Source of the DNA: Patescibacteria group bacterium
GTDB lineage: Bacteria; Patescibacteriota; Patescibacteriia; Magasanikbacterales; UBA922
NCBI GenBank assembly: GCA_018823045.1
Contig: JAHJIX010000017.1
Coordinates: 1 to 50,299, forward strand
Direction of reading: 5' to 3'
DNA: 50,299 nucleotides
Position 1 is the first letter of the stretch. Each line of letters opens with the position of its first letter. A program made the position numbers and the translations under genes. Below the pieces are notes generated by a model. It worked only from the letters and a program-made list of their open reading frames with translations. It did not search any database and was not told where the DNA came from. Of this stretch, positions 1 to 49,362 are shown one piece after another.

Positions 1-49
1 GATTAAAAATTTTTATTAATATAATGCAAGTATATCATATATATTATTA

Positions 50-78
50 TTGTGAAAGAACCTAAAATCGTGTATAAT
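50..78 (+). promoter_or_regulatory. sigma70-type promoter candidate (TTGTGA-N17-TATAAT)
   Basis: TTGTGA at 50-55, 17-bp spacer, perfect TATAAT at 73-78. Confidence 0.55.
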
Positions 79-84
79 AATGCA

Positions 85-270
85 CATGGTGTTCAGCAAC
101 AGCAAACATAAAGGAGAATGTGTGAATTACACTATACCCAAAAAAATAACTAAAGCCACAGTAATTAACAGTCAACTTGGCAACAAAGCCTACCTCTGAG
201 CTAAACCACCACCTTGCTGAACACCACCTCAAACAAATTAACACCCTATTCGTTTTGAATAGGGTTTTTT
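85..270 (+). ncRNA. candidate ~185-nt structured transcript containing a 25-codon sORF (122-199)
   Basis: Upstream promoter; GGTGTTCAGCAA (88-99) pairs perfectly with TTGCTGAACACC (214-225); AAAGGAG SD then GTG start; terminator at 243-270. Confidence 0.35.
243..270 (+). terminator. intrinsic terminator
   Basis: ACCCTATTC-GTTTT-GAATAGGGT followed by a T run on the + strand. Confidence 0.7.
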
Positions 271-274
271 ATAT

Positions 275-844
275 TTATCTTGCAATCCAACTAGAAGCAA
301 GTGTTGCATCACAAGCCATTTTTGCATACTTAATACCCTCAGCTTCAATTTCTCCCCCACCATATGGATACATCCATACGACCATATCCGCTTGTGTTCC
401 TTCTCCAGTATTACACCCACCATAACTATCTTGCGGACAAGCATCCTTTGAAAATGTTCCGCTATCGCTACAATTTAATCGCGCAGAATCTCCTGTCCAA
501 AATGATCCGTAATAATCAATACAGGTTGAACTCTCAGCAATGGCGTTACAGCTCCCTTTAATATTTTTACCTGACAATTTGTCTCCTTCTGCTTTAATCA
601 AATCATCCACTATTCCCATTTGTTCATTTTGATGCGCTTCTGTTGTTGCATCATCTAACTCTCGCATATAATCTTCTTCAAACTCAGTATCTCCATCTGC
701 TCTGAGAGCATCTGCTTCTTCTTGTGTCATGAGTTCCCCACCTTCTCGTTCATTTTGAAAGTCTTCATCTATTTCTGTTTTATTACATCCAACAGTGACA
801 AAACAAAGGGCAAGGATACATAGTGTTGTGAGTGTTTTTTTCAT
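275..844 (-). CDS. putative lipoprotein with Cys-rich C-terminal domain
   Basis: Signal peptide ending VTVGC, acidic linker, six Cys in the C-terminal ~90 aa. Confidence 0.7.
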   Translation of the reverse strand: MKKTLTTLCILALCFVTVGCNKTEIDEDFQNEREGGELMTQEEADALRADGDTEFEEDYMRELDDATTEAHQNEQMGIVDDLIKAEGDKLSGKNIKGSCNAIAESSTCIDYYGSFWTGDSARLNCSDSGTFSKDACPQDSYGGCNTGEGTQADMVVWMYPYGGGEIEAEGIKYAKMACDATLASSWIAR

Positions 845-855
845 ATATCTATATA

Positions 856-1449
856 TTAATTAACTATATTATTTTTTAACCACAAAGCAAATTTCCTTAC
901 ACAACCACAGTCATCACCCTTTCTATTACTACTCCAATCCCCCATTTCTTCAGCTGTCATCTCTGCAAATGTTTTTGTTTTTCCTTCTGGAATAAATATT
1001 TTATGAATCTCTCCCCAGTTATGCGCCCCGAGTTCACCTCGTTCTTCTTCTGCAAGTCTCCCTCGAGTAATGGTTTCAAAAAAAACTGGTTCATCAAGTG
1101 TCTCATCCATATAGGCAACAGTATCTCGAAATTCACAACTTCTGTCAAGTCCAGATATTAACTTTAAAATTCCTTTATTTCCAATCGTTTCCATAGCAAA
1201 ATTCACATAAGCCTTTGGAAATCCATTTAATGCTGGAATATAAAATCCGCCATCTTGAGCAATACAAGGCTTTCCTATATGATCAAACGCATACAACACT
1301 TTTTCATGTGCAATCACCTTTGTTTCATCAGAGCGTGGTTCTGGAATTTCAATCTCTACTGACACCACATCAATATCTACCCCTTCAAAATTTCTATTGA
1401 GTGATATTATTTTTGCTTTATTTGTAGTTGCGAAGTGAATGTGTTTCAT
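856..1449 (-). CDS. rdgB: non-canonical purine NTP pyrophosphatase (Ham1/RdgB family)
   Basis: FATTNKAK N-terminal motif, QDGGFYIPALNGFP, WGEIHKIFIPEGKTKTFAEM. Confidence 0.85.
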   Translation of the reverse strand: MKHIHFATTNKAKIISLNRNFEGVDIDVVSVEIEIPEPRSDETKVIAHEKVLYAFDHIGKPCIAQDGGFYIPALNGFPKAYVNFAMETIGNKGILKLISGLDRSCEFRDTVAYMDETLDEPVFFETITRGRLAEEERGELGAHNWGEIHKIFIPEGKTKTFAEMTAEEMGDWSSNRKGDDCGCVRKFALWLKNNIVN

Positions 1450-1451
1450 AT

Positions 1452-1805
1452 TTACTCTATTTCTTTTGTTAACTTTTCATTCTCCCAATGCCGATCTTTA
1501 TCTCTCTTTGTCTTCTTTGCCATATTCTTTTTGAATGCTTCCGTGAGGTCTATTCCGCTTTGATTGGCAAGGCAAATAAGAACAAAAAGAACATCCGCCA
1601 TTTCATCAGCTAGTTCTCCTTTTTCAGCTCCTTTTTTGAAGCTTTGATCTCCGTGTGTTCTGATGAGGATACGGGAGAGTTCCCCTACTTCTTCCATGAG
1701 TTGCCCGAGGTTTGTAAGTTCAGAGAAATATCTGACTCCTATTTCTTTGATCCATTCATCTACCTCCGTTTGAGCTTCGCTCAGGGTTATGTTTTGGTTT
1801 GGCAT
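1452..1805 (-). CDS. MazG-like nucleotide pyrophosphohydrolase
   Basis: LMEEVGELSR and ELADEMADVLF motifs of the MazG all-alpha NTP-PPase fold. Confidence 0.9.
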   Translation of the reverse strand: MPNQNITLSEAQTEVDEWIKEIGVRYFSELTNLGQLMEEVGELSRILIRTHGDQSFKKGAEKGELADEMADVLFVLICLANQSGIDLTEAFKKNMAKKTKRDKDRHWENEKLTKEIE

Positions 1806-1806
1806 A

Positions 1807-2319
1807 TTATTTCTTCAATAATAAATCACTATAAGAAAGAGAAATCAAATCCTCTTCACAAATTTCAAATAAATTAAGATAAAAATTACATTGTTCAAGT
1901 AATTTTTCTTTTCCTATAGAACCATCCTTATCAATAGCCTCAATCTCTACAAAGGTTCCTAAATCTTCTACCACATCAATATGAAATTTCACATTATCAA
2001 TAAAGTAAATTTCTCTTTTCTTATCAACTATAGTAAGAATGCCAAGCGATTTTGTTAAAATATCTTTTAAAGAAGAATTTGGAACAAAATTATAAAGAGT
2101 AACATCTGACTGTTTCGGTCCTTCTTTATTTTCTCTTTGATAATGAATTAATTTATTTTCAATATTTCCTTCTCGAAGTTTTAATCTTCCATTGTTAACC
2201 TTAAAATATGTATCAATTTGATGGTCCACTCCCTTAAAATCTGCATTTTTTGATTTCAAAATATCTCGAATAGCTTCTTGATTATTTGATTTTGCCTTAA
2301 TTTCAATATTTAGTTCCAT
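1807..2319 (-). CDS. cyaB: CYTH-domain protein (class IV adenylate cyclase-like)
   Basis: NIEIKAK, QIDTYF, RLKLRE, KKREIY, LGTFVEIE motifs; start set to MELNIEIK at 2319. Confidence 0.88.
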   Translation of the reverse strand: MELNIEIKAKSNNQEAIRDILKSKNADFKGVDHQIDTYFKVNNGRLKLREGNIENKLIHYQRENKEGPKQSDVTLYNFVPNSSLKDILTKSLGILTIVDKKREIYFIDNVKFHIDVVEDLGTFVEIEAIDKDGSIGKEKLLEQCNFYLNLFEICEEDLISLSYSDLLLKK

Positions 2320-2827
2320 ATTCATTATCATTTAATTTTTTAATAATATTTTCCACTAATTTTTCTACAGGTTTATCTGTAATTATTTCTATCTTCCTCC
2401 CAGGCAATTTTGAATAATCAACATCTTTTGGTGTAAGATTTTTAAGCAACTTTTTATCAGCCTCTCTGTGACAATCATGCCTTTCTCTTGTCAGGATCCT
2501 TTTTTTTCTTGTTTCAACATCAGCGCTACAAATTATACAAGTTAAATCAATTTTATATTTTTTTTGCCATTTTTTTAGAATTTTTCTATCACCTTCAAAA
2601 ATAAAGGGAGATTCCATTATCAAATCTACATTGTTTTTGACTTGATCTTCAGCAAGATGAAAATACAACTTATAACTGTCTTCCGTATGAAAATTTAATT
2701 TTTCGTATAAACCAGCTTTGATAGTGTCTTTGTGCAAACAACAAATATTAAGCCTCTTTGATAATTCACGAGCAAGCGTGCTTTTTCCTGTACCAGCAAG
2801 TCCGCAAATGATTATTAATTTACTCAT
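2303..2827 (-). CDS. P-loop kinase (AAA_33 / gluconate-shikimate kinase-like)
   Basis: Walker A GLAGTGKST at the N-terminus; R..R..R lid-like segment. Confidence 0.8.
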   Translation of the reverse strand: MSKLIIICGLAGTGKSTLARELSKRLNICCLHKDTIKAGLYEKLNFHTEDSYKLYFHLAEDQVKNNVDLIMESPFIFEGDRKILKKWQKKYKIDLTCIICSADVETRKKRILTRERHDCHREADKKLLKNLTPKDVDYSKLPGRKIEIITDKPVEKLVENIIKKLNDNEYGTKY

Positions 2828-2855
2828 AGCATAATTCTATTATTTAAAACTTTTC

Positions 2856-2910
2856 TAATTGTGCAGCGGCCGTTGCACAATTATGAACTATGGCGAATTC
2901 GCCACAATTA
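2856..2910. repeat. two adjacent palindromes sharing a CACAATTA arm
   Basis: TAATTGTGCA-N8-TGCACAATTA (2856-2883) and TGGCGAATTCGCCA-CAATTA (2891-2910). Confidence 0.55.
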
Positions 2911-2932
2911 AGCTATATCGTCCCCTACCTTT

Positions 2933-3403
2933 TTAAACCGAATAAACAACAATATAAGGATGATCACTTCCCACGCTCATCGGAATACCCGCAAATTCTC
3001 CATTTTTTATCACATCAGGATTATTCATATTCCTTTCACGAATAAAAAACACTTCTGCATCATATTTATTATCAATAAACTTCTTATTTCTATATGCCAA
3101 ATTCATTTCATCATCTGGAAAAGGTTTTCCATCTGGCTCTCTTAGAAGCCAATTAGGAATAACATAATCATCTGAGACAAACACAATAAAATCAAAATCA
3201 GAATAAAGGCTTCCCCGAAATCCTGGTTCTTCATACTTTCCAAATGTTCCTTTGACAGAAGATCCCATCATTGTAATTTTGAGTATTCCTTCATCAGGCA
3301 AAAGTAAATTTTTTATCTTTTCAATCGCCTTTTCACGAAGTTCTAATTGTTTTTCTTGTGAAAAAGGTGTTTTTGGTGGGCGGGTTTTTAGGTGTTGTTC
3401 CAT
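2933..3403 (-). CDS. nucleotidyltransferase-domain protein (Pol beta superfamily)
   Basis: GS...SDFDFIV motif (MGSSVKG...YSDFDF). Confidence 0.7.
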   Translation of the reverse strand: MEQHLKTRPPKTPFSQEKQLELREKAIEKIKNLLLPDEGILKITMMGSSVKGTFGKYEEPGFRGSLYSDFDFIVFVSDDYVIPNWLLREPDGKPFPDDEMNLAYRNKKFIDNKYDAEVFFIRERNMNNPDVIKNGEFAGIPMSVGSDHPYIVVYSV

Positions 3404-3480
3404 ATTGTCATATTTTTATTGTGAAAATATTGTTGTAATTAAAGTTTTGTTGTGATTTTAAATTTTGATTACTTCGTTCT

Positions 3481-3506
3481 GAGACGCAGCGGTGCGGGGT
3501 CTCTAC
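3481..3506 (-). repeat. GTAG-family REP (degenerate)
   Basis: Reverse complement GTAGAGACCCCGCACCGCTGCGTCTC: GTAG tag plus GAGAC/GTCTC stem. Confidence 0.6.
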
Positions 3507-3665
3507 GGGGTATTATTTATAGTTTTCATCCTCTTTCCAAAACAAAGATAATCTTGAATTTGATTTTTTATTTTTGTGTAAATTGATTTATAAGATCTAA
3601 TTATAATAAATACAAAAGCTGATCTTAATTTATAAAAAATATTGAATTTTCAAATCTGTTCGTCT

Positions 3666-3692
3666 GTAGAGACGTCAGCACTGCTGCGTCTT
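3666..3692 (+). repeat. GTAG-family REP
   Basis: GTAG-AGACG-T-CAGCA-C-TGCTG-CGTCT hairpin. Confidence 0.65.
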
Positions 3693-3760
3693 GTCCTTTG
3701 CATTGTTCTTTAAATAATTTTTAATTCTATTATTTTCATTACCTTAACCAATTGTCATAT

Positions 3761-4141
3761 CTAAGCAAAGAATGAAAATAAAATAATTATCAGTAATAAG
3801 ATTAAAAGCAAAACAAAATATTTCTTAAAATATTGATCTTTCACTTCCCTACAAAATTCTTTTATTGTATTTATATTAAATTTTTTAGGAAATTGTTTTT
3901 TCATCTTATATAATCGAAAAGCAATACAGAATACTGATAAAATAAAAATAATTGATACTATTCCCAAAAGATACATATCATATATACCAAAACACGGAAA
4001 TGAATTTTCAATACTTTGTTCACATGGGAAAAAGATATTAACGATAGCACCAAAGAAAAGAGTAGCGCCATCAATAAAATATAATAGTATTGAAGACAAT
4101 GCTATGATAAGAGGGGCTTTTATTTCTTTATATATTGACAT
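3761..4141 (-). CDS. hypothetical membrane protein
   Basis: 126-aa ORF with three hydrophobic segments; part of the co-directional array. Confidence 0.65.
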   Translation of the reverse strand: MSIYKEIKAPLIIALSSILLYFIDGATLFFGAIVNIFFPCEQSIENSFPCFGIYDMYLLGIVSIIFILSVFCIAFRLYKMKKQFPKKFNINTIKEFCREVKDQYFKKYFVLLLILLLIIILFSFFA

Positions 4142-4415
4142 ATTTTTTTAAAAATTGAATTAGCATATAAATTATTAAAGATAAAAGAAGAACATTCAAC
4201 CCAAAAAGTATATAAGACATCTCTTCTCCCCAAACACCACACCAATAAAATGGAATTGGGAACCCTCCCCATCCTTCAATTATTCCTCCAGTATCTGATA
4301 TCGTACATTTTGTACCAATGCCTTTACTTAGTATAGTAAAAACAAATCCAAATAACATACTGGAAATTATTTGAAAGATATGAGGTTTGTTTATTTTTTC
4401 ATTATCTTCTGTCAT
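4128..4415 (-). CDS. hypothetical membrane protein
   Basis: 95 aa, two TM segments flanking a GWGGFPIPF loop. Confidence 0.65.
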   Translation of the reverse strand: MTEDNEKINKPHIFQIISSMLFGFVFTILSKGIGTKCTISDTGGIIEGWGGFPIPFYWCGVWGEEMSYILFGLNVLLLSLIIYMLIQFLKKYVNI

Positions 4416-4427
4416 AATATTAAATAA

Positions 4428-4850
4428 TTACTTTATTTTTTTAACCATCAATATGCAATCAATATTCACTTCCTTTATGCTTTCAAATCCCAAACTTTTA
4501 TAAAAATCAACAGCTGACTTAACACTATTTGTACATATTTCATCAAAACCTTTTTGAATTGCATAATTAAATATTTCTTGCATGATTAACTTACCAAATC
4601 CCTTTTTTTGATAATTAATATTTGTAAAAACTCTTTCAACTTTGTTTTTTTTCAAAGTAGCCGTTGCATAGATATTATTTTCATCTTTCAAAATAAAACA
4701 ATCATTTTTATCTTCTAATAAAGCTTTTGGGTCAGATTGTTGAGTCATAAATTTTACACCTTCTGGACTGAGATTTAGTAATGGAATTACTTCTCGAATC
4801 ATATTTGATGTCATTTCTAAATCTTTTTTACTTATTTTTGTAATAATCAT
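4428..4850 (-). CDS. GNAT family N-acetyltransferase
   Basis: VFTNINYQKKGFGKLIM acetyl-CoA motif A and AVDFYKSLGF; start moved to MIITK at 4850. Confidence 0.85.
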   Translation of the reverse strand: MIITKISKKDLEMTSNMIREVIPLLNLSPEGVKFMTQQSDPKALLEDKNDCFILKDENNIYATATLKKNKVERVFTNINYQKKGFGKLIMQEIFNYAIQKGFDEICTNSVKSAVDFYKSLGFESIKEVNIDCILMVKKIK

Positions 4851-4919
4851 CCTAATTTCAGTTAATAAATGATAGTTTTTTATTAATTTCACCAAGACAT
4901 CCACCTTGAACCATATAAA

Positions 4920-5213
4920 TTACTTTTTTATTTTCTTTTTATATATTGTGATTACTACCTCCTGGATGATGAATACTGGAATAAAAATCAGAAAAAAATT
5001 GCTCCAAGGAATGAAAGTCGCTGGTGGATTGCAGGGAGGTTGCCCACTAGCGCATTTCCAAGGGAAGGAAACAATCATATTTTGCTGATTTTCTAGATTT
5101 AATAGTGTGAAGACCATTGCAATAGCTAACGTAATGATCAACGCAGCCAATAGCCGTGCTATCATTTTGTTTAAAGTATACTTTTTCATAATATTTTTAT
5201 TTATAATTCTCAT
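4920..5213 (-). CDS. hypothetical membrane protein
   Basis: 97 aa, two TM segments and a CASGQPPC loop. Confidence 0.6.
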   Translation of the reverse strand: MRIINKNIMKKYTLNKMIARLLAALIITLAIAMVFTLLNLENQQNMIVSFPWKCASGQPPCNPPATFIPWSNFFLIFIPVFIIQEVVITIYKKKIKK

Positions 5214-5233
5214 CCTCCTCCCAATTTTTGGGA

Positions 5234-6163
5234 TTATCTATTATATATTGTTGTATGTTTAGAAATTCTCGTAATAATTTCCTTTCTTAACATCACATGC
5301 GGGGTGATTGCTATTTTCTTTTCTCTATCAATATCAAATTCAGAAAAATATTTTTCCAGATAGTCCAATGTTCTATCATCATTACAAATAATAACATTTC
5401 TTTTTTTATCGAGTTCTATCAAATTTAAAAATGACACTTCTGAATTGGCTGATCGTAAAAATTGATCAATTTCTTCTTGAAAATTATCGATAATGTGTTT
5501 TGAATCCCACACTTCTAGTTGTACAATAAATAATTCTGGATTAATATATTTAGAATCATTTTTTAGAGAATCCAAAATATTTTTTTCTATACTTTCTTGA
5601 ACTTCTGAAAAATATTCTTCTTCAAATGTTGATGAGTAATCGAAGAATGTTTTTAATTCTTCATAGGCAATCTTATCTTCTTCTTTCGTTATTTTTGCTT
5701 GAAAATTTAAGGTATTTGACAGTATTGCCACTGCTAATAATTCAGCAGATGACGGAGAAATCTTTTCAAGTAGATTTTCCTTTTCATATTCTCTAAAAAT
5801 AAGCGTTGCTGCTGCTCCAATTGGTTCAATGACAGCATGTTCTCCTATTTTTTCACTCCAATAACTTTCAAAACCGGGATGATGATCAAAAATATGTGAA
5901 ACATTATCTAATTTTACAATTTTGTCAAAATGATCTGGATCAGAGACATCTATTACGACAAAATCCACATCCTCTACGCTTGCATCTGTTTTGTTAACAT
6001 TCAAGTCTTTATACTTTTGTGTGACACTTGAATTACATGCAGCCGTTACTACTATTTCTGCCTCCTCTTTTTTTAAATCGAGTAATTCCTTATATGCAAA
6101 AAGACAGGCAAAAGCATCTATATCTATAAAGGTACTCCCAGATGTTATTATTTTTTTTCTCAT
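5234..6163 (-). CDS. DHH-family phosphoesterase, Mn-dependent inorganic pyrophosphatase (PpaC-like)
   Basis: DIDAFAC, VIDVSD, FDHH motifs; C-terminal VMLRKEI resembles PpaC. Confidence 0.8.
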   Translation of the reverse strand: MRKKIITSGSTFIDIDAFACLFAYKELLDLKKEEAEIVVTAACNSSVTQKYKDLNVNKTDASVEDVDFVVIDVSDPDHFDKIVKLDNVSHIFDHHPGFESYWSEKIGEHAVIEPIGAAATLIFREYEKENLLEKISPSSAELLAVAILSNTLNFQAKITKEEDKIAYEELKTFFDYSSTFEEEYFSEVQESIEKNILDSLKNDSKYINPELFIVQLEVWDSKHIIDNFQEEIDQFLRSANSEVSFLNLIELDKKRNVIICNDDRTLDYLEKYFSEFDIDREKKIAITPHVMLRKEIITRISKHTTIYNR

Positions 6164-6196
6164 ATTTGTTTTTGTTTTATAAAATTTTCTATGATA

Positions 6197-6514
6197 TTAT
6201 CTCTTTAATGACAAATCATCGAAATCTTTCTCTAAATCCTTTTTTTGCTCATCACTAAGATTATCTTCAAATATGTTATCTATCTCTTCTTCCGATATAT
6301 TCATCTTCTTTATTATCGCTAATAACTTTATTTCATTACCAACTTGATAAACCCTAATTAATTTTCGTAAACAGTCAGTCCTCTTCTCTGATTGAATTAA
6401 ATAAATTACAAATGCATATAACAAAAACCATTCAATACTATCAAATAAAAATAATATTAAAAAAGCTACAGTAATTTCAATAAAGTAAGCTAAAACTATT
6501 TTATAAAATTTCAT
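6197..6514 (-). CDS. hypothetical membrane protein
   Basis: 105 aa, N-terminal TM pair, acidic C-terminus. Confidence 0.6.
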   Translation of the reverse strand: MKFYKIVLAYFIEITVAFLILFLFDSIEWFLLYAFVIYLIQSEKRTDCLRKLIRVYQVGNEIKLLAIIKKMNISEEEIDNIFEDNLSDEQKKDLEKDFDDLSLKR

Positions 6515-11682: not shown

Positions 11683-11796
11683 CTCCCCCTACGAGGGGGA
11701 GTTAGAGGGGGTCTATCTTCGCAATTGATATTGGTATTGGTTAATCCTTAATCAACTCTCCGGCAGACCCCACCTAACCTCCCCTTATAGGGGAGG
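11683..11796 (+). mobile_element. empty REPIN/MITE-like element, copy A (DUF559-associated family)
   Basis: Left end CTCCCCCTACGAGGGGGAGTTAGAGGGGGTC, 52-bp spacer, right end GACCCCACCTAACCTCCCCTTATAGGGGAGG. Confidence 0.88.
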
Positions 11797-16280: not shown

Positions 16281-16395
16281 CTCCCCCTACGAGGGGGAGT
16301 TAGAGGGGGTCAATCTTTGCAATTAAGACAGGTGTCAATTAATCCTTCTTTTAGCGCTCCGTAAGACCCCACCTAACCTCCCCTTATAGGGGAGG
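16281..16395 (+). mobile_element. empty REPIN/MITE-like element, copy B
   Basis: Both 31-bp ends identical to copy A; 53-bp spacer. Confidence 0.88.
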
Positions 16396-17032: not shown

Positions 17033-17131
17033 GTTCAGAGAATATCTATATTGTTTTGAACTGTCGCTACACACAGCCAGACGCGTAAAACGACGTCGGC
17101 TTATGAAAAATAATATAGATATTCTCTGAAC
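17033..17131. repeat. long stem-loop (24-bp arms, GC-rich loop) downstream of iscU
   Basis: GTTCAGAGAATATCTATATTGTTT pairs with AAATAATATAGATATTCTCTGAAC (one G-T). Confidence 0.75.
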
Positions 17132-27393: not shown

Positions 27394-28188
27394 TTACTCT
27401 GGAAGGTTATCCCAAAAAAAATCAAATACCATCTTTATCATACCATATAAAATTTTATCTTCAATGATAATTCCATTTGGATTCTCAGGATGTGCGTTGA
27501 TAATAGATACTTTATTTTCACCATAAATACCTAATTCACAATCATATGGAAATTGATCTTTTGAAATCATTTTTTTCTCAATACGATATGTTATATTTAT
27601 TTTCTTATATAAATCTTGCCAAAAGACAGATTCTTCTTCGGTTTCTGCCAAAATAACACGAGTTTTAATTGGTCGTTCATCTGCTTTTTTAAAATATCTT
27701 TCTAACACTCCATCTCTCAATTGCATTTGCAATGCTGTAATATTCCCCCACCCCATAATTTCATATTCTCCTGCTTGACTTACTTGATCATCTAAAATTT
27801 TTTCAATATTTTTCAAACCCTCAAAATATCTAATTTTTGGCTTATGAGGCAAAGAATTATATAATTCTTCTATATCAGGAAATACTTGTTTTGCTTGCTT
27901 AACTTGCCCTTTAGCAAGTTCTTCTTTCATTTCTGTAAAACGCAACAAACTTTCTGGTGGTTCAATTTGATAAAATTGTTTCTTTTCTTTTTCAATCTCA
28001 ACAATCAATCCTTGGACACTTAATTCTGTCAATATACGGTAAACAGTACTTCTACTAATATGTATTTCTTTTGCAATAGTACTTGGATAATCACCACCAG
28101 CTTCAAGCAAATAAAGATAAATTTTAGCCGCTTTATCACTTAAACCCAATTGTTCTACTTTTTTTTGTAATTGAATATCTATATTCAT
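27394..28188 (-). CDS. TrmB family transcriptional regulator (copy 1)
   Basis: N-terminal HTH (SRSTVYRILTELSVQGL), PHKPKIRYFEG linker, C-terminal ligand domain. Confidence 0.85.
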   Translation of the reverse strand: MNIDIQLQKKVEQLGLSDKAAKIYLYLLEAGGDYPSTIAKEIHISRSTVYRILTELSVQGLIVEIEKEKKQFYQIEPPESLLRFTEMKEELAKGQVKQAKQVFPDIEELYNSLPHKPKIRYFEGLKNIEKILDDQVSQAGEYEIMGWGNITALQMQLRDGVLERYFKKADERPIKTRVILAETEEESVFWQDLYKKINITYRIEKKMISKDQFPYDCELGIYGENKVSIINAHPENPNGIIIEDKILYGMIKMVFDFFWDNLPE

Positions 28189-28202
28189 ATTATTCCTTGT
28201 AA

Positions 28203-29000
28203 TTATTCCTTGTAATTATCCCAGCTAAAATTAAAAATCATTTTCATCATTTGATGAAATATCTTATCTTCAATAATAAATGCAACTGCTGTCTCTTTAT
28301 GATCTGTAACAATACATACTCTATCTGTCCCATAGATTAAAATTTGGCTCTCATATGGGAAAGAATCTTTTTTAAAATATTTCTGTTGTTGCAACTCAAA
28401 TAATTGTGGATATTTTGTTTTTCTTTGTTGTAAACGACTATATTTTTCTGATTCTTGATGAAAAGCACGAGAAGAAAGCCCTTTATCTAAATATGCTTGA
28501 TAATATGTATCTAATGCATCTTCAGGCAAAGATAATTGAAATTCTGAAATATTACTCCAACCACAAATTTCATAACTACCTTCCTGAGTATATATATCAT
28601 TATATGCAAAATGAACAATTTGGTCGGCCCCTTCAAAAAAACGCATAGTTGGTTTATGAGGTAAAGCTTCAAATAGTGCATTAATATCAGGGAAAATTTG
28701 CTCGGCTTCTTTTTTCCTTTTTTGAGCCAAATGTATTTGCATATCAGTATATGCCAACAAATTAACAGGTGGCTCTAACTGATAAAATAATTTATTTTTT
28801 TTCTTTACTTCAACAGCCAACCCTTTTACATGTAAATCTGTTAAAATTCTATACACTGTCGTTCTATTAATTTTTGTTTCTTTTGCAATAGCACTTGGGT
28901 ACGCTCCCCCACTTTGTAATAAAAAAATATATATTTGAGCGGACATGTCACTTAAGCCCAGCTTTTGAATTTTTTTTTGTAAACTTTTATCTGTTGTCAT
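28203..29000 (-). CDS. TrmB family transcriptional regulator (copy 2)
   Basis: NRTTVYRILTDL, PHKPTMRFFEG. Confidence 0.85.
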   Translation of the reverse strand: MTTDKSLQKKIQKLGLSDMSAQIYIFLLQSGGAYPSAIAKETKINRTTVYRILTDLHVKGLAVEVKKKNKLFYQLEPPVNLLAYTDMQIHLAQKRKKEAEQIFPDINALFEALPHKPTMRFFEGADQIVHFAYNDIYTQEGSYEICGWSNISEFQLSLPEDALDTYYQAYLDKGLSSRAFHQESEKYSRLQQRKTKYPQLFELQQQKYFKKDSFPYESQILIYGTDRVCIVTDHKETAVAFIIEDKIFHQMMKMIFNFSWDNYKE

Positions 29001-29001
29001 A

Positions 29002-29799
29002 TTATTCTTTATAACTTGCCCAGCTAAAGTTAAAAATCATCTTCATCATATTATGAAATATTTGATCTTCAACAATAAATGCAACAGGTACTTCTTTATG
29101 CGCATTAATGACAGCCACTCTATTACTTCCATATATCGAAATTTGACTTTGATATGGAAAATCCTTGGCCTCAAAATATTTTGTTTGTGGTACATTTTTT
29201 TCTTTTAATGGAGAATATAATGTTTTTTTAAATGGAGTATTTCCTTCTCCTCGCGGATAAAAAGCACGTAAAGTCAAATCTTTTTTATCTAAAATTTTAA
29301 TATACTTATTTAAAACTTTTACACCTCCTAATTTCAATTGCAAATCATTAATATTACTCCACCCAACAATCTCATAACTACCAGGTTGAGAGTATACGTC
29401 ATCATACACTTTTGTAATATTTTCTAATCCTTCAAAAAATCTGATCTTTGGTTTATGAGGAAGTGATTGAAATAATGCTTCAATATCTGGAAATAATTGC
29501 TCTGCTTTCCCTTTCTTCTCTTTTGCAAGAGTAATTTGCATGTCAGTATAACGAAGTAAACTTTTTGGTGGCTCTAGTTGATAAAATAATTTATTCTTTT
29601 TTTCTATCTCAACGACTAAACCTTTAATGGTTAATCTTGTTAATACACGATAAACTTTACTTCTATTTAATCCTGTTTCTTTTGCTATACGACTGGGGTA
29701 TCCACCACCATTTTCTAATAAATACACATAAATGACAGCCTCGCTTTCTTCTAAACCAAGCTCTGTTATCTTTTTTTGTAATTGCTTATCTGTTGGCAT
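29002..29799 (-). CDS. TrmB family transcriptional regulator (copy 3)
   Basis: NRSKVYRVLTRL, PHKPKIRFFEG. Confidence 0.85.
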   Translation of the reverse strand: MPTDKQLQKKITELGLEESEAVIYVYLLENGGGYPSRIAKETGLNRSKVYRVLTRLTIKGLVVEIEKKNKLFYQLEPPKSLLRYTDMQITLAKEKKGKAEQLFPDIEALFQSLPHKPKIRFFEGLENITKVYDDVYSQPGSYEIVGWSNINDLQLKLGGVKVLNKYIKILDKKDLTLRAFYPRGEGNTPFKKTLYSPLKEKNVPQTKYFEAKDFPYQSQISIYGSNRVAVINAHKEVPVAFIVEDQIFHNMMKMIFNFSWASYKE

Positions 29800-29808
29800 A
29801 AATTATAA

Positions 29809-30594
29809 TTATGAAATAGAATTCCACGATAAATCAAATAACAATTTAATCATCTGATATAGTACTTTATCTTCAATAATAATACCCATAGCAGTATGTT
29901 CATGGGCATTCATAAGAGAAACCCGATCTTCCCCGTATAATAAAATTTGACTTGTATATGGAAACTGTTCTTTTGATAAATATTTTGCTTGTTTTGGAAA
30001 ATCGGTTTTTGTTTTTTCTCTATATAATTGTGTTACTCCTTCTTCACGATTTTCATCTGAATAAATACCTCGTATACTCAAACCTTTTGTATAAATTTCT
30101 TCTAAATGCTCTTCCAATTTCTTAGAAGAAATATCTTTTTCTAAATCAACGATATTCCCTAATACCAAAATTTCATATGAACCCTCTTGATAAAAAACGT
30201 CATCAAAAATAGATATAAGATTATCGAACCCTTCAAAAAATCTCACAGTGGGTTTGTGTGGGAGTGATTTATATATGGCTTCAATATCATCAAAGATATT
30301 TATTGCTTTTTGATCACGTTCTTCAGCTAATCGCACTTGTGTTTTTGTATAGTTAAGTAATGATCTTGGGGGAGATACTTTATAATACAATTTATTTTTT
30401 CTTTTTGTTTCAATAATAAGCCCTTTAATGCTTAAATCTGTAAGCAACCGATAAACACTTGTTCTATTCATATTTAATTTACTCGCAATAGTACTTGGCG
30501 CAGCACCACCCTGCTCTAATAGATATGCATAAACAGAACTTAAGTTATCACTTAAGCCTAATTGTTTTATATGTGTATAAATATGTCTATTCAT
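29809..30594 (-). CDS. TrmB family transcriptional regulator (copy 4)
   Basis: NRTSVYRLLTDL, PHKPTVRFFEG. Confidence 0.85.
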   Translation of the reverse strand: MNRHIYTHIKQLGLSDNLSSVYAYLLEQGGAAPSTIASKLNMNRTSVYRLLTDLSIKGLIIETKRKNKLYYKVSPPRSLLNYTKTQVRLAEERDQKAINIFDDIEAIYKSLPHKPTVRFFEGFDNLISIFDDVFYQEGSYEILVLGNIVDLEKDISSKKLEEHLEEIYTKGLSIRGIYSDENREEGVTQLYREKTKTDFPKQAKYLSKEQFPYTSQILLYGEDRVSLMNAHEHTAMGIIIEDKVLYQMIKLLFDLSWNSIS

Positions 30595-31427: not shown

Positions 31428-31478
31428 TGTTGCAGGTAAGAAGTGCTGAAAAATTTCAGCTCTTCCCTCTGCAATAAC
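31428..31478 (+). repeat. 51-bp structured leader repeat, copy 1
   Basis: 48/51 identical to 32613-32663; internal hairpin GAAG(T/A)GCTGA-AAAATT-T(C/T)AGCTCTTC. Confidence 0.85.
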
Positions 31479-31505: not shown

Positions 31506-32558
31506 GTGATGAAACACACCTGCATCTTGTTCCTCAGCATGATGGCCATGTTGGCCTTCGGCTGTGGGGAAGACCTCACACAAGCTTTGGTGGATACCCC
31601 CACCCAAGAATCCCCCACGGAAGAATTTGAGCAAGAGTCATTCTCTGTCATCAAATTCCAAGAAGGAACAACATCATCTGAGGCCTTACGTCTGTTTCAG
31701 ACCAACAACAACCCCGACTTAGAAGTAACTGTTGTCCTTCCTAGCTACACATCTCATCGATATGTACGAAAGGACTCCCCAGAGAATCAACAGGCGTCTA
31801 TCCTGAATCAAGAAATTGAATTCATCAAATTCATATCAAATCAATTTGATACCGAAGATGAACTTGAGTCCGTTGTCTACAATGAACTCATGGAGACGCT
31901 TTTAGAAATTGAGCAAAACAGCCATGTCACCGTGCAATCAATCAAGATTAAAACGGCTGATTTTCAAAAGTTTGACATAATTCCATCTCTGATTCAAGAT
32001 ATTCAGATCCATGACTCCATACAAAATATTGGAGACACACTGAATACCCGTAGAGATGCAATCACCGACTTTACTGATGACAGGGCTTATGTACCAGATG
32101 GTGGCTCATCCACAATTTGGACAAGTGGTAGCCTCCAAAAATTTTGGTTTACATCATCTCAATTATCGCATTACTCTAGTTGGCGTAGAGGATTAGAGAT
32201 TGATACATTGATCATCCCTCGCAGTCGGGCTGGATGTGGGAATAATACGAGCACGAATATGCCTGTTTCCTATAAAGACACAGAAGCCTTTGACGATGGG
32301 AATGCTCGTATATGTACTGTTGGAACGAGTAGTGCCAATAGACTTCGGCCAAATAGGCTTTACTGGACCTGGCATTCCTTCTCTAGTTTCGAACAAGGCC
32401 TTAACCCAACAATTCAAGTTCTTTTCCAGCCCACAAAGAGAATGTGGATTGGTCAAGCTTGGGCTATGTTTAGTGATTCCCATATGCCTATTCAATGGTT
32501 GCTCCAATATAATTATAACGAAGCACCTGGACGCGAAGTATCTTGGAATCATAACTAA
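31506..32558 (+). CDS. putative lipoprotein
   Basis: AGGAGG SD; lipobox LAFGC followed by GED. Confidence 0.8.
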   Translation: MMKHTCILFLSMMAMLAFGCGEDLTQALVDTPTQESPTEEFEQESFSVIKFQEGTTSSEALRLFQTNNNPDLEVTVVLPSYTSHRYVRKDSPENQQASILNQEIEFIKFISNQFDTEDELESVVYNELMETLLEIEQNSHVTVQSIKIKTADFQKFDIIPSLIQDIQIHDSIQNIGDTLNTRRDAITDFTDDRAYVPDGGSSTIWTSGSLQKFWFTSSQLSHYSSWRRGLEIDTLIIPRSRAGCGNNTSTNMPVSYKDTEAFDDGNARICTVGTSSANRLRPNRLYWTWHSFSSFEQGLNPTIQVLFQPTKRMWIGQAWAMFSDSHMPIQWLLQYNYNEAPGREVSWNHN

Positions 32559-32612: not shown

Positions 32613-32663
32613 TGTTGCTGGTAAGAAGAGCTGAAAAATTTTAGCTCTTCCCTCTGCAATAAC
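32613..32663 (+). repeat. 51-bp structured leader repeat, copy 2
   Basis: Matches 31428-31478. Confidence 0.85.
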
Positions 32664-32691: not shown

Positions 32692-33720
32692 GTGAAAAAA
32701 CTGCTCTACCTCTTTAGCTTGATGGGCATACTATCCATCGGCTGCGGAGAAGAATATCTCATCCTTGATGGGATACAAGAAGAAGTCCAACAGGGCTTTG
32801 AGAACAACAACCGCTCCAACATGGAGCCACAAGATAATCCAGAGTCCAGCTACGCGCTCGACTTTGATATCAACAACGACGATAAGGTACGCGTTTACTT
32901 GACGGATAAGATGGATGGTCATGGTATCATCCTCGAAATCCTCCGCGGCCCCGATCGCCCCCTCCTCCAAGATGATGATGGAAAAGACATCATTGATCCC
33001 GAGCTCCCAGCTCAAGAGATCGATGCCCGATTCATTTCGATGTACGGCCAGACCTTCATGAGTAGTTATGGAGGACACGGTCCGGTTAACCCAAACTGGG
33101 GTGATCGAGATGATATACATACTGATATTGATGAACGTGCACGAGACTTTGAAATGGCGGTCATGATGATCGATATACTCGCAAACGAGAAGGTCAATCT
33201 TGAACTTTTTGATGAAGCAAATAACTTAATTTACAACTTCAAAAAGACCTCTAAGATCATCCATCCATCTGAACATACAAATATTCAAACGAAGAGCCTA
33301 CGGATATATCAACACCACTTCTTGATACATTATTCAGAGATTCGTTTGAACTTTCATCATTCCGCAACAGCAGACCATATTTACTATGCTAATCGTCCAT
33401 ATAACTATCACTACACAAAGAATCATGGTAGAGGCCCTTTTGAATCAGGAATGCGTCGTCGATGCTTACGAACATTTAACTTTTACATAGGCCATGCCCC
33501 ATTCTCCAGTTCTTGTGCTGATAGTAGAGACGATGGATTAGCCTGTTGTAATACTGGATATGGAAAGAGCTCTGGACATCATGTATGTAATGATGACACC
33601 CTCCTCCAAAAAGAAATAATGATACTAGAAGATCAATTAAGATATTATGATCATCATAATCAGACTTCTAGTACATGTCGAGACTGGTGGCCACGAGCCT
33701 ACGCCCCCTCCTGCAACTAA
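32692..33720 (+). CDS. putative lipoprotein with Cys/His-rich C-terminal domain
   Basis: AGGGGG SD, GTG start, lipobox LSIGC followed by GEE; seven Cys in the C-terminal ~75 aa. Confidence 0.8.
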   Translation: MKKLLYLFSLMGILSIGCGEEYLILDGIQEEVQQGFENNNRSNMEPQDNPESSYALDFDINNDDKVRVYLTDKMDGHGIILEILRGPDRPLLQDDDGKDIIDPELPAQEIDARFISMYGQTFMSSYGGHGPVNPNWGDRDDIHTDIDERARDFEMAVMMIDILANEKVNLELFDEANNLIYNFKKTSKIIHPSEHTNIQTKSLRIYQHHFLIHYSEIRLNFHHSATADHIYYANRPYNYHYTKNHGRGPFESGMRRRCLRTFNFYIGHAPFSSSCADSRDDGLACCNTGYGKSSGHHVCNDDTLLQKEIMILEDQLRYYDHHNQTSSTCRDWWPRAYAPSCN

Positions 33721-43963: not shown

Positions 43964-44078
43964 CCTCCCCTATAAGGGGAGGTTAGGTGGGGTCTTTCGG
44001 AGGAATTGAAGAAGGTTTATTATTAAAAAATCTTAATCGCAAATATGGACCCCCTCTAACTCCCCCTCGTAGGGGGAG
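43964..44078 (-). mobile_element. empty REPIN/MITE-like element, copy C
   Basis: Reverse complement has both 31-bp ends identical to copies A and B; 53-bp spacer. Confidence 0.88.
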
Positions 44079-48920: not shown

Positions 48921-49362
48921 CCTCCCCTATGAGGGGAGGTTAGGTGGGGTCCTTCGAAGAAAATATATGAACAATCTGCCACAATTGTTCTAATACTATA
49001 TCGAGTTCATTCAAAATTTGTTCATTTCTATATCTAACAATAGTATATCCTTGTTCTTCTAAATATGTTTGTCTTTCGATATCTTTTAATCTTTGTTTAT
49101 TTTCTCCATGAATATTTCCATCTATTTCTAAAATCAATCTTAATTCATGACAATAAAAATCTACAATATAATAATCAATATTATATTGTCTTCTAAATTT
49201 TATTCCTAATTGTTTCCCTCGTAATTCCTGCCAAAGAATCTGTTCTGACTTCGTTGCTTGTTTACGAAGTAACTTTCTTCTTTCTCTTGTTGATGATTGA
49301 TTTTGATAATATAACTTATTTTCCATAGATGAACCCCCTCTAACTCCCCCTCATAGGGGGAG
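48921..49362 (-). mobile_element. loaded REP-flanked element carrying a DUF559 endonuclease gene, copy D
   Basis: Ends at 49331-49362 and 48921-48951 differ from copies A-C by 2 nt and 1 nt and enclose one ORF. Confidence 0.85.
48940..49326 (-). CDS. DUF559 / very-short-patch-repair (Vsr-like) endonuclease
   Basis: LRKQAT.SE.ILWQELR, KFRRQY, YIVDFYC, ILEIDGNIH, GYTIVRYRN. Confidence 0.92.
   Translation of the reverse strand: MENKLYYQNQSSTRERRKLLRKQATKSEQILWQELRGKQLGIKFRRQYNIDYYIVDFYCHELRLILEIDGNIHGENKQRLKDIERQTYLEEQGYTIVRYRNEQILNELDIVLEQLWQIVHIFSSKDPT

Follow-up and report, generated by a model that had tools for sequence, protein, structure and literature searches.

The BoxC repeats of Escherichia coli, which also go by the names PIT and TM, have been known since the 1990s, and Hoyne and Maher are said to have described intrastrand-triplex motifs of E. 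coli in 2000. To our knowledge, neither the origin of these repeats, nor what spreads them, nor what they do has been established. The small nucleases of DUF559 form a very large family, and their role is likewise largely unknown. In this work, we describe a 442-bp unit in which a DUF559 gene lies between two inverted modules built on the BoxC/PIT/TM plan. It was found in a contig of 50,299 nucleotides (JAHJIX010000017.1; this whole stretch is called the window below) from a low-GC (~35%) Magasanikbacteria-type bacterium of the candidate phyla radiation (CPR). We consider it very probable that the gene and the modules constitute one co-inherited unit and that three empty units in the same window are its gene-less derivatives. 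The link between DUF559 and BoxC/PIT/TM repeats appears to be new, as no paper in the literature searched connects DUF559 or the E. coli gene ycjD to BoxC/PIT/TM or any other repeat.

The BoxC repeat was rediscovered as the PIT element and later as TM_ECO (Holder et al. 2015, PMC4666352), with the consensus CCCTCNCCC N3-6 GGGNGAGGG N3 GGGNGAGGG (PMC4666352). TM_ECO has 3610 copies across 262 proteobacterial genomes, and other GC-rich variants are numerous in Microcystis, Anabaena, Nostoc and Neisseria (PMC4666352); per strain, the TM counts range from 1 to 30 in E. coli and from <30 to >300 in Enterobacter (Holder 2015). Enterobacter, Microcystis, Nostoc and Neisseria have hundreds of motifs of this kind, which mark unstable loci. 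The MG1655 chromosome carries 23 TM copies with five inverted pairs, which always combine type A (with a TTA linker) and type B (PMC4666352). As single-stranded DNA, the E. coli motif was shown to form a triplex by circular dichroism and nuclear magnetic resonance, and PIT elements were found to block DNA polymerase in vitro while having no promoter or terminator activity (PMC4666352). The same paper reports no associated gene or mobile element, and the word endonuclease is absent from it (PMC4666352).

The loaded unit of the window (E4, 48921..49362, minus strand) consists of an end module, a DUF559 open reading frame (ORF) and a second end module. The ORF (48940..49326, minus strand) starts with ATG and encodes a YcjD-like protein of 128 aa with a Vsr-fold PD-(D/E)xK nuclease domain, which matches Pfam PF04480 over residues 14-118 (E=7.6e-32, 109.9 bits, cutoff 20.6). 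An earlier reading, made by a model from the letters of the window and here called the sequence-only reading, had described an ORF with intact DF and EIDG..H motifs, bracketed by two inward-facing GC-rich repeats whose ends recur in three gene-less units. We find the same arrangement, and D56, F57, E67, D69, G70 and H73 of the protein are invariant in 30 homologs. As delimited with a structural detector, the upstream end module (C5 type, 49333..49362, minus strand) reads CTCCCCCT-ATG-AGGGGGAG-TTA-GAGGGGGT on the minus strand, with CTCCCCCT at 49362-49355, the loop ATG, AGGGGGAG at 49351-49344, the linker TTA and GAGGGGGT at 49340-49333. The downstream end module (C4 type, 48921..48950, plus strand) reads CCTCCCCT-ATG-AGGGGAGG-TTA-GGTGGGGT on the plus strand, with CCTCCCCT at 48921-48928, the loop ATG, AGGGGAGG at 48932-48939, the linker TTA at 48940-48942 and GGTGGGGT at 48943-48950. 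Between the upstream module and the ATG start codon stands the hexanucleotide TCATCT, which corrects the earlier spacing of 4 nt to 6 nt and puts the run of G 7 nt before the ATG. At the other end of the gene, the downstream repeat does encode the terminal KDPT*, as had been proposed, and its TTA linker, read on the minus strand, supplies the TAA stop codon. None of the four copies in the window has a target-site duplication, in line with the earlier description; the sole flank feature common to the units is T-Y before and R-A after, which prolongs the inverted repeat.

Each end is composed of a homopyrimidine arm, a 3-nt loop, a homopurine arm, a 3-nt TTA linker and a mirror purine arm, the last of which is the purine arm reversed and not complemented. 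All eight ends in the window have this pyrimidine/purine/mirror-purine triplex plan. The structural detector returned exactly these eight unit ends plus two false matches in 50 kb, and the hairpin pattern gave 12 matches in the window with 0 expected from 100 shuffles. Across 171 flanks of DUF559 genes, a mirror fits the third arm better in 27 cases and a direct copy in 8, with 15 ties, and 35 of the 53 third-arm substitutions change A to T, as the purine triplex motif permits. The order pyrimidine-loop-purine-loop-mirror purine, with T permitted opposite A, follows the rule of a purine-motif intrastrand triplex. This is the class II purine motif of Holder 2015, in which the triads G*G.C, A*A.T and T*A.T are permitted. 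The sequence-only reading had taken the ends for REP (repetitive extragenic palindrome) repeats; they do not form a new REP family but are the known BoxC/PIT/TM intrastrand-triplex motif, without a GTAG/CGTC tag, and the empty pair is the 'tandem inverted TM' of Holder 2015. According to ViennaRNA, which models the hairpin only, the upstream hairpin folds as single-stranded DNA with -8.7 kcal/mol (z=-2.2); the spectroscopic evidence for a triplex concerns the E. coli sequence alone. An empty unit is predicted to fold as a single strand into two terminal hairpins that abut a central stem of both inner arms (-23.5 to -25.2 kcal/mol, z -3.4 to -4.2). In some modules flanking DUF559 genes, the linker holds a whole extra GC hairpin. 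An intrinsic terminator was also considered, and the terminator scan found no such site at the units. An Rfam search of the window returned one tRNA only, with no known RNA family covering the units.

The three empty units are located at 11683-11796 (E1, 114 nt, plus strand) in the divergent WecG/ClpB spacer, at 16281-16395 (E2, 115 nt, plus strand) between two ferredoxin-like ORFs, and at 43964-44078 (E3, 115 nt, minus strand) between RimK-like and deaminase/phosphoribosyltransferase ORFs. All four units, of which three are empty and one is loaded, are intergenic, and each pairs a C5-type with a C4-type module. The 31-nt ends of E1-E3 are 100% identical, with 0 differences in 62 nt across the three copies, whereas the interiors are mutually only 57-64% identical, from which we conclude that the copies are old. 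Ends that have stayed identical at each copy call for either selection on them or their homogenisation. Over their first ~20 nt and last ~12 nt, the empty interiors begin and end much like the loaded one, and the empty units look like internally deleted, multiplied copies of the loaded unit.

The presence of the units is specific to the lineage. In the closest relatives of the host, the DnaE and ClpB proteins are 79% and 82% identical, respectively; E1 is absent from the nearest of them (those with the 82% identical ClpB), and no module occurs in ~52 kb around dnaE of relatives, compared with eight in the 50-kb window. A true empty orthologous site was sought in these relatives and not found, the dnaE neighbourhood being rearranged and the WecG-ClpB spacer otherwise occupied. 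At the place of E1, the nearest relatives carry another palindromic element of ~115 nt with the ends ACGTCATTGCGAG...CTCGCAATGACGT (L129 5765-6000, L130 4923-5158). This spacer, beside a conserved small hairpin and with a 23S_rRNA_IVP gene nearby, is a landing spot for two unrelated hairpin elements.

Judged by the plan of their ends, the repeats and empty units of the window are new sequence variants of a known repeat family of unexplained origin. They share with BoxC/PIT/TM the pyrimidine arm, the 3-6-nt loop, the purine arm, the 3-nt loop and the mirror purine arm with T for A, as well as the intergenic position, the occurrence either singly or as inverted A+B pairs of ~85-115 nt and the strongly lineage-dependent copy number. 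The likeness extends to individual loci, as the E. coli pair #1/#2 in the hrpB-mrcB spacer has the exact plan of the empty units, including the tt...ga outer flanks. The window repeats are not TM_ECO in the strict sense, since their arms are CTCCCCCT / CCTCCCCT with 8-nt stems, versus CCCTCNCCC in TM_ECO. They differ further in that the host is a CPR bacterium and one pair encloses a gene.

For the sequence-only reading, DUF559 between such repeats in this genome alone would have spoken against its proposal; we find that the pairing recurs in other genomes and across phyla. Of the 75 metagenomic DUF559 genes whose flanks were long enough, 40 are accompanied by one or more modules within ~220 nt, against a background in the same loci of 4 modules in 126 kb more than 800 nt from the gene (~0.005 per 250 nt). 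A DUF559 homolog with 60% identity, encoded in a second CPR genome, is bordered by the same ends, with one more hairpin placed in the linker. The arms vary while the plan stays constant: other CPR homologs have CCCCCC, CCCTTCCC or CCTTCTCC as arms, the latter two with ACA linkers. Where matched modules face each other across the gene, the length of the unit is a uniform 435-524 bp and the ORF takes up the interior; pairs outside the window also lack a target duplication. Throughout ~600 kb of loci, the only gene found between matched inward-facing modules is DUF559, and it always fills the unit. The C-terminal tails of many homologs (KTPPNLPL, KDPSHLP, PSPRAPLPRGEG) arise by read-through into the module. 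Read-through into the repeats explains the odd proline/glycine-rich N- and C-terminal extensions of many annotated DUF559 proteins.

Outside the CPR, Pseudanabaena ABRG5-3 has a perfect CCCCCCA-type inverted pair around a DUF559 gene and further pairs alongside, and modules adjoin the DUF559 gene in Picosynechococcus PCC 7002 pAQ6, Deinococcus proteolyticus, Klebsiella and Neisseria gonorrhoeae, the source of structure 3hrl. The modules in these lineages are often fused into one long interrupted palindrome. When the 75 metagenomic genes were scored for module placement, type A was upstream in 25 and downstream in 18, and type B was upstream in 21 and downstream in 18; these counts refute a strict topology of A upstream and B downstream as a general rule. 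In N. gonorrhoeae, three tandem copies with a period of 281 nt follow the 3' end of the DUF559 gene (L125 1498-2190), and the tandem unit contains a CTCTCCC-type and a CCCTCCCC-type module. CPR genomes carry several diverged DUF559 copies per contig, in which they differ from REP/RAYT. In GCA_964344965.1 (L118 8966-11658), there is a second DUF559 gene, 54% identical, together with an empty pair that has CCTTCTCC / CTCTCTCC arms; this gene and pair sit exactly between the PPDK_N and PEP-utilizers ORFs, splitting a gene resembling phosphoenolpyruvate synthase in two.

When genome loci were chosen by the motif only, one of the 19 had a DUF559 gene, several had empty pairs and about half had single modules; no gene other than DUF559 was found between modules in these 19 loci. 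Magasanikbacteria, Peribacteria and rumen Bacteroidaceae/Prevotellaceae share one identical 30-mer, CTCCCCCTACAAGGGGGAGTTAGAGGGGGT. In distant phyla, the CPR A-end 30-mer recurs exactly or almost exactly as a solitary intergenic module that has no DUF559 within 8 kb, namely in rumen Bacteroidaceae/Prevotellaceae (L004, L006, L010, L018, L020), Desulfurobacterium (L007), Ignavibacteriales (L015) and Spirosoma soli (L021). Because only 2 matches were obtained in 2.9 million viral contigs, we conclude that the motif is not phage-borne.

The protein itself was compared with known nucleases in sequence and in predicted structure. A sequence search of the PDB matched 3hrl (E=2.5e-16), and the AlphaFold model (predicted local distance difference test score 86) has a Vsr-type core preceded by two helices. 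Foldseek placed the model closest to 3hrl (E=9e-8, template-modelling scores 0.66/0.89), then to the homing endonuclease I-Bth0305I (3r3p, E=1e-4, scores 0.58-0.77), which is the closest characterised fold, and gave Vsr (1vsr) an E value of 0.07 only. The NCBIfam model PRK09767 scored 62 bits, below its equivalog cutoff of 218, and the window protein is therefore not a YcjD equivalog. Vsr, DUF559, DUF2726 and I-Bth0305I fall in one clade, group 58 (Steczkiewicz 2012). The one in vivo study of a DUF559 protein concerns the DUF559-containing VsrA of Caulobacter, which causes DNA damage (PMC12907096). The Pfam Vsr family PF03852 had no match to the window protein at E<=0.1, and no DNA (cytosine) methyltransferase was found among the window ORFs scanned; the mismatch-directed nicking suggested by the sequence-only reading receives no support here. 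A role in a defence system was considered as well, for which PADLOC gave only weak matches to nuclease domains.

In E. coli, too, a DUF559 gene and the repeats meet. The ycjD gene of K-12 is followed, after 165 nt, by TM#9. In MG1655, its stop codon falls within a decayed module, which gives a ...RRSPSP* tail, and the interval up to TM#9 contains a ~45-nt partial duplicate of the 3' end of ycjD (L121 ~3330-3375, minus strand, ycjD-fabI). Of 5426 complete E. coli genomes, 3378 have the gene; they belong to phylogroups A, B1 and C and to a few further sequence types, and in the others the eef operon occupies the locus. The ycjD-less allele was considered as an empty site and turned out to be a replacement by the eefRABCD operon. 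With a combined ycjD-plus-TM query, in which the ycjD locus counts as one, all 35 sampled ycjD+ chromosomes had 11-28 matching places, and 12 of 21 ycjD- chromosomes had three or fewer. Holder's TM counts are 13-30 for phylogroups A/B1/C and 1-2 for B2. The E. coli rayT gene has REPs on its flanks, and every TM is >34 kb away from it.

These observations can be brought together in the following mechanism. The 442-bp unit would be a compact selfish cassette, in which the nuclease gene fills the space between inverted BoxC/PIT/TM copies, and the 114-115-nt units would be internally deleted derivatives that correspond to the inverted A+B pairs of E. coli. In single-stranded DNA or under supercoiling, each end may fold into a hairpin with a folded-back mirror purine arm, so that the whole unit would present two hairpins flanking a central stem of the inner arms. 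The small nuclease would recognise this shape rather than a long sequence and cut beside the folded end, after which the replication and repair of the host would make a copy of the unit or insert it anew, leaving no target duplication and uniform ends. In its function, such a system would resemble REP/RAYT-REPIN with a PD-(D/E)xK nuclease in place of the HUH transposase. We infer the action of the protein on the ends, the location of the cut and the origin of the copies. The anatomy and the REP/RAYT analogy suggest that the folded ends are the substrate of the nuclease itself, which would spread or maintain the repeats, and we regard this as a nearly even call that leans slightly toward doubt. 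More tentatively, DUF559 proteins may be the missing partner enzymes of BoxC/PIT/TM repeats, with a Vsr-fold nuclease of ~120 aa, specific for a folded end of hairpin and third strand, as the sole element-encoded factor of a ~450-bp mobile unit. We are similarly hesitant about a mechanism of mobility of a categorically new kind, in which cutting and repair would generate and maintain gene-less doublets and singlets in a way that no transposase or homing endonuclease is known to use.

Several points weigh against this reading. We know of no biochemical or genetic evidence for any DUF559 protein binding or cutting such motifs, nor of any strand-transfer chemistry in PD-(D/E)xK nucleases. The examined part of the window's genome amounts to 50 kb, which shows no sign of recent movement, the interiors of the copies being ~40% diverged and the closest DUF559 homolog anywhere 60% identical. 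Among the 75 metagenomic DUF559 genes, 35 have no detectable module; outside the CPR, either orientation of the module is found on either side of the gene, and the Deinococcus gene lies between outward-facing modules. The similarity of the proteins tracks arm class weakly (49.3% vs 46.7% identity, a difference reached by 1 of 2000 permutations). In E. coli, the correlation of ycjD with TM copies is confounded by phylogroup, and some ycjD- strains, O157 for example, keep 11-23 motifs. Moreover, dimethyl sulfate footprinting detected no triplex in vivo in E. coli, and most E. coli TM loci are fixed across strains (PMC4666352).

Alternatively, DUF559 could be a homing-type parasite that invades pre-existing motif pairs, its nuclease cutting the empty ones and its gene being copied in by repair through the ~45-nt homology of the ends, while the pairs themselves would arise or spread otherwise, for instance by replication slippage at a polymerase-blocking structure or by another enzyme. 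The fold relationship to I-Bth0305I and a weak PADLOC match to 'HEase' speak for such an origin, as do the absence of target duplication, the ~20 and ~12 nt that empty interiors share with the loaded unit, the excess of empty over loaded pairs (3:1 in the window, with DUF559 in 1 of 19 motif-selected loci) and the block of DNA polymerase by PIT elements in vitro (PMC4666352). Homing, however, needs near-identical alleles, whereas the empty interiors are ~40% diverged from one another and from the loaded unit, and it leaves unexplained the solitary modules, the perfectly conserved ends and the lineage-specific arm sequences with their constant plan. We consider it unlikely. The modules might instead be structural or regulatory parts, acting in cis, of a potentially toxic nuclease gene, in which case the empty units would be relics of gene loss with no mobilisation in trans. 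The G-run and anti-G-run at the start would control translation, while the stop would have a terminal structure of RNA or DNA. The inner purine arm indeed lies 5-7 nt before the ATG in the window and in several CPR homologs, where it resembles a Shine-Dalgarno sequence that the pyrimidine arm could sequester; the stop codon falls in or beside the downstream module, and the DNA damage by Caulobacter VsrA would fit a toxic product (PMC12907096). In most other loci, however, the module is 16-170 nt from the start, and neither promoter nor terminator activity was detected for PIT elements (PMC4666352), in agreement with the negative terminator scan at the units. Three relics with a shared interior at unrelated intergenic sites within 50 kb imply multiplication and not three losses of a gene, and solitary identical 30-mers stand in Bacteroidaceae, Peribacteria and Aquificota with no DUF559 within 8 kb. 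A purely cis-acting role is rather improbable in our view.

The units could also be non-autonomous elements moved by a transposase encoded elsewhere (RAYT, IS200/IS605 TnpA or another), with DUF559 as a passenger. Such a transposase could lie outside the 50 kb of genome covered, hairpin-ended repeats are classically moved by HUH enzymes, and PD-(D/E)xK nucleases alone are not known to transpose DNA. However, no transposase family, RAYT / Y1_Tnp included, was found among the ~50 window ORFs, and the E. coli rayT, with its own REPs, is more than 34 kb away from the nearest TM; the sequence-only reading had expected no RAYT or other transposase with the same repeats, and this expectation agrees with both results. 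DUF559 as the one cargo between matched inward-facing modules in ~600 kb is also too constant for a passenger, and the association holds across phyla. We give little credence to this explanation. With the link between DUF559 and the triplex-motif modules, an orphan repeat family gains its first candidate partner gene, and each side gains a testable role. If the proposed action of the nuclease is true, the unit would represent a second system of the REP/RAYT kind, a repeat plus its keeper gene, based on another enzyme superfamily and on triplex-capable DNA, for which E. coli K-12 with ycjD and its 23 TM copies would be a ready model.

Apart from the units, the window has a few repeated features of its own. 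On the minus strand, 27394-30594 holds four tandem paralogous ORFs (264, 265, 265 and 261 aa) with an N-terminal TrmB-type winged-helix and 63-76% DNA identity. Two adjacent paralogous ORFs of 350 and 342 aa on the plus strand (31506-32558 and 32692-33720) have no Pfam match, and just before each of them stands a 51-nt stretch that is 94% identical between the two (31428-31478, 32613-32663). Downstream of the nifU-iscS-rrf2 cluster, a 25-nt inverted repeat (17033-17057 / 17107-17131) is 96% complementary with a spacing of 49 nt. Nucleotide-housekeeping ORFs (Ham1/ITPase, MazG, CYTH, AAA_33 kinase, GNAT, DHH phosphoesterase) occupy 1-6200 on the minus strand, and the rest of the window is ordinary core genome, with GltX, SpoU methylase, ClpB, IscS/NifU, RecQ, TsaD and DnaE.

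In comparison with characterised relatives of the enzyme, the window protein shares with Vsr and Caulobacter VsrA the nuclease superfamily clade. It differs from Vsr in having no PF03852 match and no methyltransferase nearby, and nothing indicates repair of T:G mismatches. With I-Bth0305I and the EDxHD enzymes, it has in common the fold, which in their case belongs to a nuclease whose role is to spread its own gene; there is no detectable sequence similarity, as 3r3p gave no sequence match. EDxHD enzymes have a large additional region for DNA binding and reside in group I introns or inteins or between the genes of split inteins, in contrast to the window gene, which is intergenic, encodes a minimal protein of 128 aa and has inverted ends of its own.

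Among mobile repeats, miniature inverted-repeat transposable elements that depend on an autonomous insertion sequence, such as the Correia type, are likewise short units with terminal inverted repeats that resemble internal-deletion derivatives. The window units differ from them and from insertion sequences by the lack of a target-site duplication and of a DDE or other transposase and by ends that are structured homopurine/homopyrimidine modules. The closest parallel is with REP/RAYT, in which a single small gene is also flanked by inverted hairpin repeats without target duplication, gene-less inverted doublets of ~100 nt and solitary repeats far outnumber the gene, and the repeat copy number follows the presence of the gene in some lineages. 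The REP palindrome is tagged at its 5' side by GTAG or CGTC (PMC3733652), whereas the window modules lack a 5' tag and have a TTAG linker 3' of the hairpin, followed by the mirror arm with its triplex potential. The REPIN-like system put forward by the sequence-only reading therefore stands in part: the unit of gene and repeats recurs and the empty units look like deleted copies, but the repeats are not REPs and the inward-facing pair is not universal outside the CPR. The enzyme, finally, is a PD-(D/E)xK nuclease of the Vsr fold, whereas that of REP/RAYT is a Y1 HUH transposase.

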